A model generated the notes under the pieces. The model had not been told where the DNA came from. It worked only from the letters and a program-made list of their open reading frames with translations, and ran no database searches. From IMG/VR virus record IMGVR_UViG_3300042540_001084: a DNA stretch of 64,000 bases; one strand, written 5' to 3'. Source of the stretch: an uncultured virus (IMG/VR IMGVR_UViG_3300042540_001084). Lineage: Duplodnaviria; Heunggongvirae; Uroviricota; Caudoviricetes. Within the stretch, counting starts at the first letter, position 1. The number at the start of each line of letters is the position of its first letter. Shown here piece by piece: positions 722-18,028 of the stretch. The translations under genes were made by a program, and so were the position numbers.

Positions 722-1117
722 TGGTGGAGGTGGGGGGAGTCGAACCCCCGTCTTGCTCGCCCTAACCATTAGGGACTACACGTTTAGGTCAAGGTTTTTC
801 ATACCTTCCGAAATATCTGAGTTCTCACACCGCTCAGCGACGGTGACAGTTCTTACGGGGAACCATACCCGTTTTGTTCCTTTTTGGATAGAAACCACAC
901 CTTAAAGGACTTCTGTTGCTAGGTTAATGTCCATCGACCCCGTGTTGTGTATACCTCTTAGGCTACAGCAACTTTTTCTTCTCTCATAAGACCGAGAGCA
1001 GAAAGTTTAGCAAAAGTATTGCCAGTTAAAAATCGCCTCCGTAGATTATAGTGATAGGAAACTTCTCACTACGTGCCCCCGATGCCCAGCAACGCCAATC
1101 AATACCAAGGCACCCCC
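722..1117 (-). ncRNA. ssrA: tmRNA (transfer-messenger RNA)
   Basis: 5' GGGGGTG pairs with 3' CACCTCC-ACCA, giving the G3:U70 alanine identity; GGGTTCGACTCCC T-arm; internal tag frame 1023-958 GNTFAKLSALGLMREEKVAVA-stop after a TAACT resume context; 396 nt. Confidence 0.93.
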
Positions 1118-1135: not shown

Positions 1136-1166
1136 CAAATATAAGTATTTATTAGTATATGCCAAA
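1136..1166 (-). promoter_or_regulatory. Bacteroidota-type promoter for tmRNA (TTTG-N19-TATATTTG)
   Basis: Plus-strand caaatata at 1136-1143 and caaa at 1163-1166. Confidence 0.55.
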
Positions 1167-2526
1167 GTTTGACAAGAAAATATTTGAATCTTTTAACGAT
1201 ACAATCGTTCTATATTACAATATGGAAGCACTATGTAATAACTTCCAAGATAACACAAATTGGTGTCAGAACGATGAAACTGTAGAAGATTTGGAAAAAT
1301 CTTTTTCCCTTGGAGGTGCTTATGTTATCAATGAAAGTGGGAAGTATTATTTATTAACTCGTACTGAGAGTGACTACAAAATTGTTGATTCTAAATCTTC
1401 AGAGGTTAATTTGAAAAATTTCACAACAAATGGTACATTGGAAGACTTTATTGAGACTCTTACAAAACCAGGTCCATTCTTCCCAATTGCGTTAAGAAAA
1501 TACATCTATGGTAGAGTCGATGCTGATTATTTAGATAGATTTCCAAAAGTTTCTGAAGTAATAGAAAGAGGTAGTAGAAAGGGTGAAACAAAAATTGTCT
1601 TCAAATTAAGCGAGAATGATTATGAAAATATGTTTAACTTGGTTGAGGATGACATTTATATTATTAATGCTGTTACATCAAGTTATGGTGGTTATGATGG
1701 TTTTCAGTTTGTTGATGAATGGAGTACACGAGAAAATTTTTCAGAGGGATATTGGTATCAAAGTCAATATAATGATGAAAACAAAGAAAAAATGAAGAAA
1801 ATATTTTCTTTGTTGCATCCTGATTGGAATGAGGAAGATATCAGTATTGATAACTCTAGTAACGAAGAAGTTTTGGCAAAACTGTATAGAGACTTCAATA
1901 AACTTGTTCCGGGTATTTTGGGTGATATGATGGATAGTGCCAATTATTATGCCAATGAGGAAGTAAGAGATGGTGTTAGAGAAAGTGTTTATAAAGAGTT
2001 AAACAATGTTTTCTCAAAAAATGGTTTTAGTTGGGACTCGAGAGATAACGAATTAACCGCAACAGTTGCCGTTCTTTATACTTGGGCAGTCCAACTTAAT
2101 ATGGAATCTGCAACACCAAAACAATTATTGGAAGGGATTTTTAATGAAGTTGGTGGTATAAATGGAGGTTGGTACGAAGAGTATTGGAACTACCAAGGAG
2201 ATTTTGATAGTCACGGTTTTAATGTTGATTTGGGACGAAACCTTGATAAGATACTTGAGAAGTTTGAGGAAGATTATCAAATTGAAGAATGGTCCAGAAT
2301 ATCCAAAGAAATTTTTAGTAAGTTTAAACAGGGGTATAGTCTTCCGTTCCCAAATTACCCTGATTTAAGATTGGTTGTTGATAGTGTCAACCCTGAAACT
2401 TTAAAAGTTGAGTTTAAAGTCCAAAAAGGATTACAACAGAGAAATTTTTCAATGGACTATGAAAAATTTAATGATTTTATTTACAATAAAAAGTTATTTA
2501 ACTTTGAAAATCTGTTAGGTTTTTAG
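1159..2526 (+). CDS. Hypothetical acidic protein (455 aa)
   Basis: Long ORF; TATTTAT motif 6 nt upstream; no family recognised. Confidence 0.8.
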   Translation: MPKFDKKIFESFNDTIVLYYNMEALCNNFQDNTNWCQNDETVEDLEKSFSLGGAYVINESGKYYLLTRTESDYKIVDSKSSEVNLKNFTTNGTLEDFIETLTKPGPFFPIALRKYIYGRVDADYLDRFPKVSEVIERGSRKGETKIVFKLSENDYENMFNLVEDDIYIINAVTSSYGGYDGFQFVDEWSTRENFSEGYWYQSQYNDENKEKMKKIFSLLHPDWNEEDISIDNSSNEEVLAKLYRDFNKLVPGILGDMMDSANYYANEEVRDGVRESVYKELNNVFSKNGFSWDSRDNELTATVAVLYTWAVQLNMESATPKQLLEGIFNEVGGINGGWYEEYWNYQGDFDSHGFNVDLGRNLDKILEKFEEDYQIEEWSRISKEIFSKFKQGYSLPFPNYPDLRLVVDSVNPETLKVEFKVQKGLQQRNFSMDYEKFNDFIYNKKLFNFENLLGF

Positions 2527-2551: not shown

Positions 2552-3382
2552 ATGACAATCAACACAAACCTACTTAAGGAAGTTCTATCAGTTCCCACAG
2601 TATCAAGACACGAAGGTATTATGGTAGAATACCTCACAAACTACCTAACCAACAAAGGTTACAACTTTCAGGTTGATGAACATATGAACGTTTATGTTAC
2701 AAAACAGACTTCTGAAGTTGTTGAATATTTTCCTTGTGTTGTTGCTCATACGGACACGGTCCACTCATTGACAAATATTAATGTTCGTGAAGAAATGAAA
2801 GAAAATGCTCAAGGTGAAATGAAACTTTCCTTGAAAGCTTATGACGACCACGGAAATCCAACAGGTATTGGTGGTGATGACAAGGCGGGTGTTTTTGCCT
2901 GTTTGACTTTATTGGAAGAACTACCTGACTTGAAAGTTGCGTTTTTTGTTAGTGAGGAAATTGGTTGTATTGGTTCATCTCACGCTGACCCTGAGTTCTT
3001 CAAAAATGTCGGATATGCGATTCAGTTTGATGCACCTGAGAACTGGATGGTTACAGAATATTGTTTTGGTGAAAGATTGTTTGACCGAAACTCTGATTTC
3101 TTCAAGTCTTGTGATGTTGTATTGAAAGAGTCTATGACAGACGATATGAAGTACCAACGACACCCATTTACTGATGTATACGCTTTGAGAAAGAAATTTG
3201 ATTTCTCTTGTATTAACCTATCAATTGGTTATTATGACTACCACTCAAAATATGAATATGTTGTAATTGAAGATGTCGAGAACGGTATTAACATTGGTAA
3301 AAAAATTATCGAATCAATTGGTAACAATTATCACCACACTAACAGAGTAGATAAAAACTCACATCAGTTTTTACTTTTCTAA
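2552..3382 (+). CDS. M20/M28/M42-clan zinc metallopeptidase
   Basis: VAHTD, GGDDKAG, SEEIG and a C-terminal YH metal-ligand motif. Confidence 0.85.
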   Translation: MTINTNLLKEVLSVPTVSRHEGIMVEYLTNYLTNKGYNFQVDEHMNVYVTKQTSEVVEYFPCVVAHTDTVHSLTNINVREEMKENAQGEMKLSLKAYDDHGNPTGIGGDDKAGVFACLTLLEELPDLKVAFFVSEEIGCIGSSHADPEFFKNVGYAIQFDAPENWMVTEYCFGERLFDRNSDFFKSCDVVLKESMTDDMKYQRHPFTDVYALRKKFDFSCINLSIGYYDYHSKYEYVVIEDVENGINIGKKIIESIGNNYHHTNRVDKNSHQFLLF

Positions 3383-3385
3383 AAC

Positions 3386-3414
3386 AAAAAAGAGGACATT
3401 AGTCCTCTTTTTTT
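3386..3414. terminator. Bidirectional intrinsic terminator
   Basis: aaaaaagaggac-atta-gtcctctttttt between convergent genes. Confidence 0.75.
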
Positions 3415-4025
3415 ATTCCCTTTGGTTCAAGTGGTGGGTCTAATAAAAATCTTTTATTAACCCAATTTCTTAATTCGTTTTCTACAAAAAACTCTGGCAC
3501 TGGTTCATCGTCTGGCATTCTGTTAGCAATTTCTGCAATATGACGAGCAAATTTAACTTTACTCTCATCGTCCATTAAGCTCATTAAACCATCTGATATA
3601 AAAAATATTTTACTAAATGGGTCTGAAAGAGGAAGGTCACCCTCAACTGCATCCATAAGTCTTAAAATTGTTTTACCCCACCAAGTCTTGTAATTTTGGG
3701 TTTCAGTTAATGAAGGTTTAATAATTTTATTTGCAGCTCTCATAATTGCAGCACCAAATCCCGCAACCGCTAATTGTGGTAAAAACCAAGGTAATAATCT
3801 TAATGTTGCTTTAAACCCACCCTCGCCAATATGTTTACCCAATCGTTCCTTTATTGCCGATTCGATAATAGTTCTTAATTGACCAAATGTTATAGGTCCT
3901 TGAGCATCACAAAATTTCTTAGCATCACAAATACTACGTACAACTCTATCTGAAGGTTCAACTTCAATACCTATTTTTTTAAGGTCGATTTGTTCTTGTA
4001 AAATTTGTTTAATTCTATCACGCAT
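3399..4025 (-). CDS. Hypothetical protein, possibly head-internal
   Basis: ORF starting MRDRIKQILQEQ; TATTTAT 5 nt upstream; central hydrophobic segment. Confidence 0.75.
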   Translation of the reverse strand: MRDRIKQILQEQIDLKKIGIEVEPSDRVVRSICDAKKFCDAQGPITFGQLRTIIESAIKERLGKHIGEGGFKATLRLLPWFLPQLAVAGFGAAIMRAANKIIKPSLTETQNYKTWWGKTILRLMDAVEGDLPLSDPFSKIFFISDGLMSLMDDESKVKFARHIAEIANRMPDDEPVPEFFVENELRNWVNKRFLLDPPLEPKGIKKED

Positions 4026-4038
4026 ATAATATAAATAT

Positions 4039-4066
4039 AAAAGGGAGGACTTTCATCCCCCCTTTT
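4039..4066 (-). terminator. Probable terminator after clpC
   Basis: aaaaggg...cccctttt imperfect hairpin. Confidence 0.45.
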
Positions 4067-4067
4067 G

Positions 4068-6068
4068 TTACTTACCAATTTTTACTGTCTCATCTTGGAC
4101 GGTAAGATTGATTTTTTTACCTTCCTTGATTTTACCTGTCAGGACCATCTCAGAGATAAAATCTTCGACCTTATCTTGAATAGCCCTTTTGATAGGACGT
4201 GCTCCATATATTTCATCAAACCCAACTTTTGAGATAAATTCAATCAACGAAGGACTATATGTAATTTGATAATTCATATCAGTCAAACGAGTCACCAATT
4301 TATCCAATTCAAGTTTGGTGATTTTATCGATATTTTCTTTCGATAAAGTTTGGAACACGATGGTGTCATCTACACGGTTCAAAAACTCAGGTGAGAAGAA
4401 AGTTTTGAGTTCTTTCATCAACATCTGTTTTTTGGCTTCTTCGTTTGAGTATTTGTTTGATGAGAAACCAATACCTGAACCAAAATCAGACAATTTTTTA
4501 ACACCCAAGTTTGTGGTCATAATAATCAAGGTATTCTTGAAGTTAATCTTACGACCCAATGAATCAGTAACGTGACCATCATCAAGGATTTGAAGTAGGA
4601 TTGAGAAGATGTCTCGGTGAGCCTTTTCAACCTCATCAAATAGGATTACTGAGTATGGTTTGTTTTTGACTTGTTCTGTCAACATACCACCTTCATCATA
4701 ACCAACGTATCCTGGAGGTGCTCCGACCAATCGAGATACCGTGTGTTTTTCTTGATACTCGGACATATCCACACGAATCATCGAATCTTCTGAACCAAAC
4801 ATTTCTTTGGCGATTTGTTTAGCCAAGTGAGTTTTACCAACACCAGTAGAACCCAAGAAAATAAATGAACCAATTGGACGATTAGGGTCTTTGATACCAA
4901 TTCGGTTTCTACGGATTGATTTAACAATCTTTTCTACCGCCTCATCCTGACCGATTACCTTAGACTTAATAACACTATCCATATTGATAAGTGCGTTAGT
5001 GTCATCGATTGTCATTTTGTTTACAGGAATTTTTGTCATAGACGAAACCACATCATAAACATTATCAACAGTAATCGAGGTACGATTGGTTGATGACTCC
5101 TCTTCAAACTTTTTCTTTTCAGATTCAAGTTTTGCCAAGATTTTACGTTCCTTGTCACGTAATTCGGCTGCTTGTTCAAAGTTTTGACGTTTTACAACAT
5201 CAAGTTTTTGTTGTTTGATTTCAGCCGCTTTACGTTTCAGGTCCTCAATTGCTTCAGGTATTTTAACCTCAGTTTGAGCACGAGCCCCAACCTCATCCAG
5301 AATATCAAAGGCTTTGTCAGGGAATTGACGGTCTGTGATGTAACGGTCAGCCAACTTTACACACAATTCAATTACCTCATCTGAATAGGTTACCTTATGG
5401 TAAGACTCATACTTATCCTTGACATTGTTAAGGATAATTACAGTTTCTGCAGGTGTTGATGCGTCAACCATAATTTTTTGAAAACGACGTTCCAACGCCC
5501 CATCTTTCTCAAACGACTTACGATACTCATCCAAAGTAGTCGCTCCGATACATTGGAGTTCTCCACGAGCAAGAGCTGGTTTAAAGATGTTGGAACCATC
5601 AAGAGAACCTGATGAGTTACCTGAACCAATCAACGTATGAATCTCATCAATGAACACGATGATATTCGGGTTGTTTTGAAGTTCTTCCAAGATAACCTTT
5701 AGTCGTTCTTCAAACTGACCACGATACTTGGTTCCTGCAACCACAGATGTCAAATCCAAAGTAACAATTCGTTTATCCAACAAATTCTTTGGACACTCAC
5801 CTTTGTGAATCAACATTGCCAATCCTTCGACAATCGCGGTTTTACCACAACCAGGTTCCCCCAAGATAATTGGGTTGTTTTTCTTCCTACGTGATAAAAC
5901 TTGTGCAATTCGTAGAATCTCTTGTTCACGACCAACAACAGGGTCAAGTTTACCATCTTCAGCTAACTTAATAAGGTCTCTACTGAAATTGTCCAACACA
6001 GGTGTTGAAGAATCAGAAGATTTACGTTGGCTTAGAGGTTTTTCGTCATCATCCATTAATCCATTCAT
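4068..6068 (-). CDS. clpC: ClpC-type Hsp100 AAA+ ATPase lacking the N-terminal Clp-repeat domain
   Basis: Two AAA+ modules ([29 protein letters not shown]), GTKYRG and GYVG pore loops, short UVR-type M-domain ([11 protein letters not shown]), ClpP-docking IGF loop; begins just before [11 protein letters not shown]. Confidence 0.92.
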
Positions 6069-6085
6069 AGTTTTCTATTTTTTTA

Positions 6086-6117
6086 CAAAGGTATAACAAT
6101 TTTCATACAAATCCAAA
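6086..6117 (-). promoter_or_regulatory. Bacteroidota-type promoter for clpC (TTTG-N20-TACCTTTG)
   Basis: Plus-strand caaaggta at 6086-6093 and caaa at 6114-6117. Confidence 0.65.
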
Positions 6118-6118
6118 C

Positions 6119-6193
6119 AACTGAAAAATTGTCAGTTAAGTTTTTTGTGATACTGACAAAATGTCATATATTTCCATTTGGCATTCAAATTGA
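6119..6193 (+). promoter_or_regulatory. Two TGACA-N3-TGTCA-type palindromes plus a sigma54-like -24/-12 element
   Basis: AACTGAAAAATTGTCAGTT 6119-6137, TGACAAAATGTCA 6154-6166, TTGGCATTCAAATTGA 6178-6193. Confidence 0.5.
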
Positions 6194-6241
6194 CTATTGT
6201 CTCTACAAAAATAAACATTTATATTTAATAAAAAAAATACT

Positions 6242-6688
6242 ATGAGAAGATTTAATTTTGACGACCTAAACGAAATGTTTGAATCAATGTTCGGTGGAGA
6301 CCCTTTTAAAGACTTTAAAAAAGATTTTAAAACGGGTAAAGATGAAGAAGGTGAATGGACCAGTGAAAGTTACACATCACCAGATGGTACTTGGAAATCA
6401 ACCGTAATTTATAAGTCCTACTTTGGAAGTGACAAAGATGGTCTTAAATCTAAATTGAGAAAACCAAAACAATCTGAGAATAAAGTTGAAAGACTAAAAG
6501 CAGAACTCGAAAGAGCGGTTGAGACTGAAGATTTCTTATTGGCAATTAAACTTCGTGATATGATTAAATCAATTGAAGAGAATAAAGACAAGGTAGAAGA
6601 ACTACAGTCTAAATTGAAATCGGCAATCGAAACACAAGATTTTGAATCAGCGATTGAGATACGAAACGAGTTGAGAAAATATGAATAA
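6242..6688 (+). CDS. Protein with two tandem UVR (UvrB/UvrC-type) coiled-coil motifs
   Basis: LKAELERAVETEDFLLAIKLRD and LQSKLKSAIETQDFESAIEIRN. Confidence 0.8.
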   Translation: MRRFNFDDLNEMFESMFGGDPFKDFKKDFKTGKDEEGEWTSESYTSPDGTWKSTVIYKSYFGSDKDGLKSKLRKPKQSENKVERLKAELERAVETEDFLLAIKLRDMIKSIEENKDKVEELQSKLKSAIETQDFESAIEIRNELRKYE

Positions 6689-6691
6689 TTT

Positions 6692-6721
6692 GAAGACCCC
6701 CGACTAAGTTGGGGGTTTTTT
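6692..6721 (+). terminator. Intrinsic terminator
   Basis: aagacccccgac-taa-gttgggggtttt followed by a T-run. Confidence 0.75.
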
Positions 6722-6734
6722 ATATTTATCTTAT

Positions 6735-7034
6735 ATGGAAAAGATAGTGAACAAATATCTTGATGGTTCTTTTAACTATTCATCACTTTTTGATGCCTAT
6801 ATTAGAATTAGAAAAGAATTAAAAAGACTTGGTTATACAGAGGAAACCGCGGCTAAGGTTTCGAATATGACCGTAGAATTATTTAAAGCTCACGATGAGT
6901 TTAATTATTATTTACATATGTTAAAGAAGGAATTGTCTGATATGTTTAATTTGGAAGAAAATGATTTAAATTTAATTATCCACAAAAGATTGGAGAAGAT
7001 AAATGAGTTATTCCCTTTAAACGATGGCAATTAA
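6735..7034 (+). CDS. Hypothetical protein
   Basis: ORF with TATTTAT 5 nt upstream; overlaps the next gene. Confidence 0.7.
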   Translation: MEKIVNKYLDGSFNYSSLFDAYIRIRKELKRLGYTEETAAKVSNMTVELFKAHDEFNYYLHMLKKELSDMFNLEENDLNLIIHKRLEKINELFPLNDGN

Positions 7035-7269
7035 AAGAGAAATTATAGACGGAACAAAAATACTCAACGAGATTGAGTCAAGTAATATTACAAGAACAGA
7101 ATATGATACTGCAACCAAAAAAATGATTGCAGAGTTCAAAAATGGCGTGAGATACGAATATGAAGATGTACCACACGCAACATACACAAAATTCAGAATG
7201 TCCGAATCACAGGGTAAATTCTTCAATTCTGAGATATCAAAAAAATTCAAGTATAAGAAAGTAGAATAA
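7024..7269 (+). CDS. KTSC domain protein
   Basis: SSNI...YD.....L..EFKNG..YEY.DVP...Y......S.GKFFN..I pattern. Confidence 0.85.
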   Translation: MAIKREIIDGTKILNEIESSNITRTEYDTATKKMIAEFKNGVRYEYEDVPHATYTKFRMSESQGKFFNSEISKKFKYKKVE

Positions 7270-7286
7270 CTATCTATTTATTAATA

Positions 7287-8039
7287 ATGGAGAAAGTTAA
7301 CGACATTATTGATAGTTTTTCACTTAGAGAAACCTTAAACCCTAAAGTTTGGGAAAATCCTGAGGAAGCTAAAGATGCAAAAATGAAGTCAAAAGTAAAA
7401 AGGGCTTTATTAAAAATTGCGGATGCTTTTATCGATAGTCTTGGTGATGATATTAAAGTTGAAGATATTATATTAACAGGTTCGTTGGCAAATTATAACT
7501 GGTCAAAATTTTCAGACTTTGATTTACACGTTGTAATTGATTTCTCACAATTCAAAAAACAAGAAGATTTACACAAAGAATTGTTTAACCTTAAAAAACA
7601 ACTTTTTAATGAAAAACACGACATCGTAATTTTTGGTTACGAGGTTGAGTTGTACGCCCAAGATGCCAAAGAAGCTCATTATTCTTCAGGTGTTTATTCA
7701 ATTTCAGATGATAAATGGTTAAATGTTCCCGAAAGAGAAAATTCAAAAATAGATAGAGATTTATTGGAAACAAAAATTCTTTCTTGGAAACAGAAACTTC
7801 AAAATTTGATTCTCCAAATTAAAAAGGATGGTGTTGAAAAAACTGAATCTAAAATTTTGGCTCTTAAGGATAAATTGAAAGAATATAGAACTTCAGGTTT
7901 GGAGAAAGAAGGTGAATACTCGTATGAGAATTTGGTTTTCAAATATCTAAGAAGGTCAGGTCTTATTGAAAAATTGTATGATACTATCAACAATCAAATG
8001 GATAAAGAACTTTCCGTTGAAGTAAAAAATATCGACTAA
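7287..8039 (+). CDS. Pol-beta superfamily nucleotidyltransferase
   Basis: LTGSLANYNWSKFSDFDLHVVID (GS...DxD) plus a downstream acidic strand (EVELY). Confidence 0.75.
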   Translation: MEKVNDIIDSFSLRETLNPKVWENPEEAKDAKMKSKVKRALLKIADAFIDSLGDDIKVEDIILTGSLANYNWSKFSDFDLHVVIDFSQFKKQEDLHKELFNLKKQLFNEKHDIVIFGYEVELYAQDAKEAHYSSGVYSISDDKWLNVPERENSKIDRDLLETKILSWKQKLQNLILQIKKDGVEKTESKILALKDKLKEYRTSGLEKEGEYSYENLVFKYLRRSGLIEKLYDTINNQMDKELSVEVKNID

Positions 8040-17862: not shown

Positions 17863-18028
17863 GATATTGTTTGTGTTTTGCAGATTCTTTCTGACTTCTC
17901 TTAACTACAGATTTCTTTTTAAATTCTTTCAATTCAACTAATCTTTGCATTTGTTTTGTTCTAATAACTTTGGATTTCAAAGTCTTTAGTGCCTTTTCAA
18001 TATTTGAGTCTACTTTTACTATTAACAT
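17843..18028 (-). CDS. rpsU: Ribosomal protein bS21 homolog
   Basis: MLIVKV..NIEKALK.LK.KV..T......L....F.K.SVVKR; 61 aa, basic; resembles Flavobacteria bS21; position in the head module matches known bS21 phages. Confidence 0.85.
   Translation of the reverse strand: MLIVKVDSNIEKALKTLKSKVIRTKQMQRLVELKEFKKKSVVKRSQKESAKHKQYLRTLGE

Follow-up and report, generated by a model that had tools for sequence, protein, structure and literature searches.

How is a ClpC unfoldase kept in check once it has lost its N-domain, and what is the small protein encoded head-to-head with it? Both questions are raised by a 64,000-nucleotide stretch of DNA (hereafter, the window) from the uncultured Caudoviricetes record IMGVR_UViG_3300042540_001084. 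Here, the gene for a ClpC-type double-ring AAA+ unfoldase of 666 amino acids without Clp_N (4068..6068, minus strand) is divergent from the gene for a 148-amino-acid protein with two UVR motifs (6242..6688, plus strand). A sequence-only reading of this pair had proposed that the phage enzyme escapes host adaptor control, borrows host ClpP, is gated or loaded by the UVR protein and belongs to a tag-unfold-degrade-recycle module. Overall, our analysis confirmed the underlying observation, partly supported the interpretation and rejected the host-ClpP step. We favour the reading that this is a phage proteostasis locus, in a lineage with its own ClpP, whose N-less ClpC would be unlocked by the double-UVR protein, and we put its probability at roughly 45%.

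Loss of the N-domain from the phage ClpC

The ClpC assignment draws on the open reading frame (ORF), Pfam, PHROG, structure-chain alignments and a family alignment. Pfam recognised AAA, AAA_lid_9, AAA_2 and ClpB_D2-small in the 666-amino-acid product, together with a weak UVR motif (residues 279-310), and did not find Clp_N (PF02861) in it. The protein aligned in a single stretch to residues 153-794 of S. aureus ClpC (E 1.9e-223), beyond the N-domain, and likewise to residues 154-799 of B. subtilis ClpC, again downstream of the N-domain; alignments to ClpB chains were split in two stretches, and PHROG 4871 was matched from profile position 163 of 764 only. As in the Firmicutes ClpC-ClpP systems of S. 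aureus and B. subtilis, the aligned part extends over both AAA+ modules, the M-domain and the D2-small domain. Because PF02861 was absent and the alignment began at S. aureus residue 153, we regard the phage protein as a ClpC-derived ΔN variant and not as a canonical ClpC, and it begins at the linker following the N-domain. There is no room for an upstream extension, since the gap to the next gene is 173 bp. Identity as a stand-alone disaggregase of the ClpG or ClpK type was rejected, with scores of 633.8 and 653.7 bits against NCBIfam cut-offs of 1900.

Both AAA+ modules were confirmed by the conservation of Walker A/B motifs and pore loops in a family alignment of 26 sequences. The second module contains the loop F-G-x-G-(I/V)-G-F (residues 529-535), in which F529, G530, G534 and F535 were invariant in the 26 sequences. 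Its I-G-F tripeptide (residues 533-535; 4464..4472, minus strand), located by the family and structure-chain alignments, is what we take to be the ClpP-docking (L/I/V)-G-(F/L) motif. The short M-domain lies at approximately residues 268-325 (5094..5267, minus strand), with the Pfam UVR stretch at 5139-5234; the coordinates of the M-domain and motifs were derived by hand from residue numbers. Its UVR motif scored 20.2 bits in the protein scan (cut-off, 21.5) and 25 bits, above the cut-off, in the whole-record scan. The site aligned to F436 of S. aureus ClpC is occupied by F297 in the window and by Y in relatives, so that, like Firmicutes ClpC, the phage protein retains the aromatic M-domain residue along with the ClpP loop. 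In this respect, Pfam and the alignments agreed with the anatomy first described from the sequence, namely both ATPase rings, a UVR-type M-domain, the IGF loop and no N-domain.

A total of 188 viral stretches encode a relative of this ClpC, of which the best 80 were kept (loci L010-L089). The N-less state was found in 80 of 80, with the start just upstream of the conserved linker, and the open frames measured 664-695 codons from stop to stop, apart from one frame truncated where its contig ends and another that contains an insertion. We also looked for a separately encoded N-domain, which would have counted against the sequence-only reading. No Clp_N gene was found in the complete 141,693-base record, of which the window is part, nor in any of five larger relatives, including three with a completeness of at least 91%, and this check accordingly did not refute the reading. 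The loss is genuine and lineage-wide. The nearest cellular ClpCs found by a pattern-seeded scan all came from Flavobacterium/Flavobacteriaceae (57-58% identity; 80 of the 80 loci kept from that scan), and the Flavobacterium ClpC that we checked has 848 amino acids and a Clp_N domain; the ancestor of the phage ClpC was a Flavobacterium-type ClpC, from which the entire N-domain has been lost. The huge-phage GenBank records LR756502 and LR745206 likewise contain N-less ClpC genes (707 and 701 amino acids, 57% identical), and no UVR or Hsp20-like ORF of at least 80 amino acids was seen within ~3 kb of them, as judged by eye without Pfam.

As a side observation, the ClpC with the insertion (L068:3782-6187, plus strand) has an 833-codon open frame, and the match covers 2,406 bases for 649 query residues; these numbers imply that ~150 residues are inserted, which may represent an intein or an additional domain.

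A laboratory counterpart of this protein exists. According to the available portion of a 2025 study of S. aureus ClpC (PMC12583610), the resting state is anchored by the N-domain; ΔN-ClpC assembles into planar hexamers able to bind ClpP, and these hexamers pair head-to-head via their M-domains into proteolytically inactive ring dimers and rods. With the additional F436A change, ΔN-ClpC becomes highly active, can degrade GFP-SsrA and gains in toxicity. Removing the N-domain thus destabilises the resting state while the M-domain lock remains, and releasing that lock as well yields a promiscuous and toxic enzyme (PMC12583610). The phage ClpC begins where this construct begins; unlike in the engineered truncation, its N-domain was lost in nature, and the loss is fixed throughout a phage lineage.

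The divergent gene and its alternates

The 148-amino-acid protein was characterised through its ORF, Pfam, profile searches and an AlphaFold2 model. PF02151 matched two stretches (54.9 bits, E 6e-15; 35.5 and 32.3 bits, above the gathering score, in the record scan), corresponding to two hairpins at 6476-6580 and 6584-6685 (plus strand). The second motif was 35% identical over 37 residues to ClpC M-domain residues 273-309 (pairwise E 0.002), in agreement with the earlier description of a divergent gene with two M-domain-like UVR motifs, and the M-domain is the sole other UVR motif in the record. Each hairpin has a conserved aromatic residue. The AlphaFold2 model (86 sequences; mean predicted local distance difference test score, pLDDT, 77) contained a weak helix at residues 7-16, three strands within 26-58 (pLDDT 72-80) and helices at 77-94, 98-130 and 134-147 (pLDDT >90), the last three forming two hairpins around a long central helix; the pLDDT was below 50 at residues 1-5, 14-19 and 67-73, in the N-terminus and linker. 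With the family profile, 1,187 cluster representatives were found at E<=0.001, of which 216 also reached E<=1e-10; most have 120-155 amino acids and are matched over their full length, and the nearest ESM Atlas clusters were 100% viral. The conserved parts of the family are a Phe-rich N-terminal segment, a G-x-D-x-x-G-x-W ... S-x-D-G module and both UVR motifs.

Several identities were tried for this protein. It shares with McsA, whose gene belongs to the clpC operon in Firmicutes, both a UVR motif and a location beside clpC. Among the NCBIfam models, McsA scored best against UVR motif 1 (E 7.4e-8; profile positions 137-176 only), and the McsA chain of 8wtb was among many tied helical fold matches of the model (Z 6.8). 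The identification as McsA was rejected, with 32.4 bits against a cut-off of 210 and no match to the N-terminal zinc fingers; unlike McsA, the phage protein has no zinc fingers, because it has no cysteine, and the phosphoarginine-binding N-domain is absent from the phage ClpC. An Hsp20/alpha-crystallin identity was also rejected, as Pfam found no PF00011 match. Descent from a small heat-shock protein (sHSP) was not established, the hhalign comparison of the UVR family with the slot-sHSP family giving a probability of 5.8% (E 0.0066) over 40 N-terminal columns; the Phe-rich segment showed a faint likeness to the N-terminus of the slot sHSPs in tblastn (E 0.27). A Foldseek search of the model against the PDB yielded no match at E<=0.001, and a wide VIA-align search yielded generic helical hairpins only (Z 6-8), with the N-terminal sheet barely probed.

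Adaptors of the CLPS1/CLPF type use the ClpC N-domain, which the phage ClpC, unlike plastid CLPC1, does not have. The available sections of PMC8889267 report that the UVR-domain proteins CLPF, EXE1/2 and UVR2-4 were enriched on trapped plastid CLPC1, and that UVR motifs mediate the pairing of UvrB with UvrC. The phage pair resembles these partners in combining a small, modular UVR-motif protein with a ClpC that itself has a UVR-type M-domain, and differs from them in that the phage protein has two tandem UVR motifs, has no YccV, DUF151 or other Pfam domain, and is viral only.

Linkage of the UVR gene to ClpC, the point at which the sequence-only reading could be checked by synteny, was found in 20 of the 80 loci, where the gene has the same place and orientation (38-100% identity, tblastn). 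At 18 further loci, an Hsp20 gene of ~130 amino acids fills the same slot head-to-head with ClpC (for example, L013:5397-5789, L026:5404-5802 and L036:5436-5831, all on the minus strand, and 15 others), and its products end in an I/V-x-I/L motif. Neither UVR nor Hsp20 was found in the slot at 41 loci, where a ~113-amino-acid ORF with a KTSC protein and a nucleotidyltransferase, or unrelated ORFs, abut ClpC; the one remaining locus begins too near ClpC to tell. Pfam assigned 14 of 34 distinct slot proteins to UVR and 11 to HSP20 (PF00011), leaving 9 with none. Pairs of sHSPs and Hsp100 proteins are familiar from IbpA/B with ClpB and from the sHSP genes that lie beside ClpK/ClpG in heat-resistance loci. 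The 18 sister loci resemble such pairs in having Hsp20 head-to-head with an Hsp100-type gene; unlike in the ClpG/ClpK pairs, the phage protein keeps its ClpP loop, and the window has the UVR protein in the place of the sHSP.

The exchange extends to the control region. The 173 bp between the two genes (6069..6241) contain two TGACA-N3-TGTCA palindromes, at 6122-6134 (one mismatch) and 6154-6166 (perfect). At this position, the motif was present in 12/12 UVR-type, 8/9 Hsp20-type and 0/10 empty-slot loci examined. The gaps of UVR- and Hsp20-type loci measure 163-202 bp, with one to three palindromes that are ~30-42 bp apart where there are at least two, and those of eight empty-type loci measure 70-113 bp. 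In most palindrome-bearing loci, few or no further sites occurred elsewhere in the 8-14 kb of the locus. Together, these patterns suggest that a putative dimeric regulator acts on the divergent pair. A window-wide regulon was rejected: only three sites with at most one mismatch occurred in the 64 kb, against 3.8 expected, and one of them lay outside the control region. Terminator-like hairpins follow directly 3' of the UVR gene (6692..6720, plus strand) and of the ClpC stop codon (4039..4066, minus strand).

To trace the history of the slot, we built a FastTree phylogeny of ClpC from 82 rows with 58 distinct sequences, omitting L070, and placed its root on three sequences from huge phages. Hsp20 occupied early-branching positions of all three clades, the UVR type formed one 19-row clade plus L019, which was nested among Hsp20 rows, and the empty slot dominated the third clade. 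This distribution suggests that Hsp20 is the older occupant and that the UVR gene replaced it at least once, or moved once by recombination; the occupant was probably lost in the third clade, the order of events being that of a quick tree. We also noted that ClpC residues 1-20 (6008-6068, minus strand), where the N-domain would sit, form a short acidic tail of the M-x-x-x-M-D-D-D-D/E-K type. This tail is kept in the UVR-type and main Hsp20-type clades, and the third clade has a Gly/Asn-rich tail.

Contigs from RNA libraries (95-99% identity) covered ~4070-6061 of ClpC in all four lake metatranscriptome runs and 6417-6676 of the UVR gene in one of the four; such contigs neither prove transcription nor give levels. 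No contig covered 3427-4061 or 6094-6347 in the four runs, a gap that proves nothing. In lake metagenomes, the phage was represented at 0.95-1.00 of sampled words. In the available parts of PMC9723584, the UVR family appears as fam584 (18 genes, one auto-named UvrB, mostly unannotated), which adjoins ClpC in one related phage genome, both with non-zero normalised transcript values.

ClpP, peptidase and tmRNA in the lineage

The 141,693-base record, whose completeness was estimated at ~47% by CheckV, is about half of a ~300-kb jumbo phage genome of the bS21-phage lineage. The window contains a T4-type large terminase, a transfer-messenger RNA (tmRNA) and a tRNA-Ser. It also contains a homologue of the ribosomal protein bS21 (17867-18019, minus strand) that scored 24.8 bits, below the Pfam cut-off, and bS21 was above the cut-off in three relatives of 172-321 kb. 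Because bS21 is present in the record and these relatives, we place the phage in or beside the freshwater Bacteroidota-infecting bS21 phages (PMC9723584). The closest cultured relatives of the terminase were Flavobacterium phages (27% identity). The phage is a freshwater virus of Flavobacteriia-like Bacteroidota. A shared-word look-up returned only eight homologous relatives. The five larger relatives examined comprised a 321-kb genome with terminal repeats, genomes of 318 and 272 kb, the UVR-type 172-kb G004, and a 150-kb near-identical fragment of the same phage type as the record.

No ClpP was found in the window, as had been noted before, or in the whole record; given that the record is ~47% complete, this absence says little about the phage. 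ClpP was present in four of the five larger relatives (3/3 of those at least 91% complete), namely the 321-, 318- and 272-kb genomes and G004, with E values of 1e-53 to 1e-59 and a CLP_protease domain above the cut-off (177.6-196 bits). This 225-amino-acid ORF scored 238.9 bits with the NCBIfam ClpP model (equivalog cut-off, 361) versus 70.7 with that of the head protease, which argues for a bona fide ClpP and against a ClpP-related head-maturation protease. The last 25 kb of the record are colinear with G004, ending at ~137-140 kb of that genome, where clpP lies at 154 kb; the contig thus ends ~15 kb short of the colinear position. Because this colinearity puts clpP past the contig end, its absence is best explained by truncation, and this very phage probably encodes clpP. 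The proposal that the enzyme borrows host ClpP was accordingly not supported, as relatives, one of them of the UVR type, encode ClpP. Unlike a Firmicutes ClpC, then, the ClpC of this lineage has a phage ClpP to pair with, and, unlike in the Firmicutes systems, a scan of 15 neighbouring ORFs showed neither MecA nor McsB.

Of the other members of the proposed degradation module, the peptidase was upheld. This M20-family (PepT/PepD-like) protein of 276 amino acids (2552..3382, plus strand; Pfam, NCBIfam and synteny) is convergent with ClpC and was found just downstream of it in 74 of the 80 loci, the six misses all being on loci that end soon after ClpC, so that synteny makes the link well supported. 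The peptidase probably has no lid/dimerisation domain, because PepT has ~410 amino acids. The tmRNA (722..1117, minus strand; Rfam, 89 bits), with a 21-residue tag ending V-A-V-A, is more loosely linked, being within ~6 kb in 11 of 35 loci scanned. At seven of these 11, ARAGORN called 21-residue tags with one conserved pattern ending V-x-x-A, and at four it made a shorter call. Two Flavobacterium genomes encode the canonical 9-residue tag ending A-L-A-A, unlike the phage tag. The looser link is intriguing given the SsrA result for ΔN-ClpC-F436A.

The UVR gene is followed by conserved neighbours on the plus strand (6735..8039), consisting of a 99-amino-acid ORF, a KTSC protein (7024-7269) and a nucleotidyltransferase (7287-8039). 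Directly downstream of ClpC is a 208-amino-acid ORF without a family match (3399-4025, minus strand), which among L010-L089 occurred only at L010, L016 (identical) and L011 (84%); a query-level count of five also takes in loci among L007-L009. A 455-amino-acid ORF with a faint match to the COMM domain (1159-2526, plus strand; E 0.0086) has counterparts beside the peptidase in 58 of the 80 loci (61 of 83 searched), at 21-32% identity. A COMMD-like Flavobacteriaceae protein appeared among the weak fold matches of an unrelated model.

Possible roles of the UVR protein

In the mechanism that we favour, the N-less ClpC could not take N-domain-dependent adaptors, its pore would be more open, as in the engineered S. 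aureus protein, and, like ΔN-ClpC, it would tend to sit in inactive head-to-head ring dimers held by M-domain contacts. The double-UVR protein would offer two M-domain-like hairpins, each with an aromatic residue, that dock on the ClpC M-domains and release the lock; its sHSP-like Phe-rich N-terminal part may also pass on or tether non-native clients, and the adjacent M20 peptidase would trim the products of ClpCP. Since M-domain contacts lock the engineered ΔN-ClpC, it is plausible that the UVR protein binds the M-domain, and by analogy with that construct, the protein is a reasonable candidate to occupy the M-domains and release the lock. A complex prediction for ClpC 20-350 and the whole UVR protein, each supplied as an alignment, reached scores of 0.07 and 0.08, well short of the mark of 0.32; run without controls, it counts neither way.

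Several points weigh against this mechanism. The proposed binding is drawn from synteny and motif likeness, and the phage enzyme may not share the resting-state behaviour, which is that of a Gram-positive ClpC. ClpP is known from relatives and not from the phage's own record. Neither kind of occupant was found at 41 of the 80 loci, and two empty-type relatives whose completeness is rated at 100% and 91% contain no Hsp20 and no UVR motif other than that of ClpC; the slot gene is therefore dispensable, and ClpC works without a partner. The UVR protein is thus a dispensable, co-regulated proteostasis accessory, and the idea that it gates ClpC is weakened, while its linkage to ClpC stands. Conservation of the M-domain does not differ between phages with a UVR gene, an Hsp20 gene or an empty slot. 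A co-variation search found a sole convergent position, ClpC residue 312 (5131-5133), which is non-polar (A/V/I/G) in all 19 UVR-clade sequences and in UVR-type L019, and polar (D/N/T/S) in the remaining ClpCs except L028 and L033; we treated it as weak. Eight of the 22 private ClpC changes of L019 fell within residues 270-340, a region with 17% of the alignment entropy, compared with six of 15 in one Hsp20-type sequence, and the search found no enrichment beyond that of the latter. Finally, an sHSP is a holdase without a UVR motif, and its exchange with the UVR protein also fits a chaperone role independent of ClpC.

This last point leads to the alternative that survives best, although we still consider it unlikely: the UVR protein is an independent stress or holdase-type protein that is co-regulated with ClpC and replaces Hsp20 without contacting ClpC. 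The Hsp20 exchange fits such a role about equally well, and the explanation is rated as it is for that reason. The UVR gene has the same slot and palindromes as the Hsp20 genes, the slot is dispensable, no clear co-variation with the M-domain was found, and the N-terminus faintly resembles that of an sHSP in the tblastn and hhalign comparisons given above. However, the protein has no alpha-crystallin domain, half of it consists of two hairpins resembling the ClpC M-domain, the record's sole other UVR motif, and the plastid UVR-domain proteins are known ClpC interactors.

The favoured mechanism can also be extended into a self-contained, orthogonal degradation pathway composed of the phage tmRNA tag, N-less ClpC, a UVR unlocker, phage ClpP, the M20 peptidase and a palindrome-binding regulator. 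In this version, which we consider rather improbable as a whole, the tmRNA would add its 21-residue tag with a V-A-V-A end, unlike the 9-residue host tag; the N-less ClpC would read the tag directly at its open pore, by analogy with the activity that ΔN-ClpC-F436A gains on SsrA-tagged GFP; the double-UVR protein would mimic the M-domain and thereby unlock the ring dimers of ClpC when needed; the products would be broken down to amino acids by phage ClpP together with the peptidase; and a regulator binding the TGACA-N3-TGTCA sites would set the timing.

More improbable still is a UVR protein aimed at UVR-motif proteins of the host, either the M-domain of host ClpC, whose proteolysis it would deregulate or block, or UvrB/UvrC, whose excision repair it would block. 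The host-type ClpC of Flavobacterium is a homologue of full length that shows 57-58% identity where it aligns, the M-domain region included; the next-best partial NCBIfam matches of the phage protein were to the UvrB C-terminus, and UVR motifs mediate UvrB-UvrC pairing (PMC8889267, available sections). Against this, the placement and control shared with the phage ClpC and the exchange with an sHSP point to a phage proteostasis module, and no repair or anti-defence genes were seen in the scanned neighbourhood.

We give very little credence to the idea that the UVR protein is mainly a ClpCP substrate or timer, degraded via its disordered N-terminus in the manner of M. tuberculosis Hsp20, which the available portion of PMC12913811 describes as degraded by ClpC1P1P2 in vitro; the low-confidence N-terminus and linker of the AlphaFold2 model agree with it, but the strong conservation of both UVR hairpins across the 216 clusters at E<=1e-10 suggests a binding function. 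Docking of an N-less ClpC without a cognate peptidase on host ClpP, gated by the UVR protein, is given as little credence; it accords with the retained docking loop and the lack of ClpP in the window and record, but is largely contradicted by the incompleteness of the record, by ClpP in four of the five larger relatives including UVR-type G004, by the colinearity that places clpP past the contig end and by the dispensability of the UVR protein in the lineage.

The phage lineage and its genes for a 'Clp protease' and a 'chaperone ATPase' were already known: in their available parts, the study of bS21 phages lists both (PMC9723584), and that of moraphages includes a ClpA-like ATPase and a putative peptidase in its core list (PMC12619734). 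Like those viruses, the present phage is a large freshwater Bacteroidota phage. The missing N-domain, the double-UVR protein and the Hsp20 exchange are not discussed in those parts of the two papers, and in the literature searched, we found no description of a natural loss of the ClpC N-domain, a double-UVR partner or an Hsp20 exchange under a shared operator.

Overall, the ΔN truncation of ClpC known from the laboratory is a natural, fixed trait of a widespread phage lineage, and it comes with a candidate partner that resembles the M-domain and whose place an sHSP takes in sister phages. The lineage's own ClpP corrects the idea that such a phage depends on the ClpP of its host. The locus offers a natural system for asking how an N-less ClpC is kept in check, whether UVR hairpins can act as M-domain ligands and why jumbo phages bring their own proteolysis machinery.

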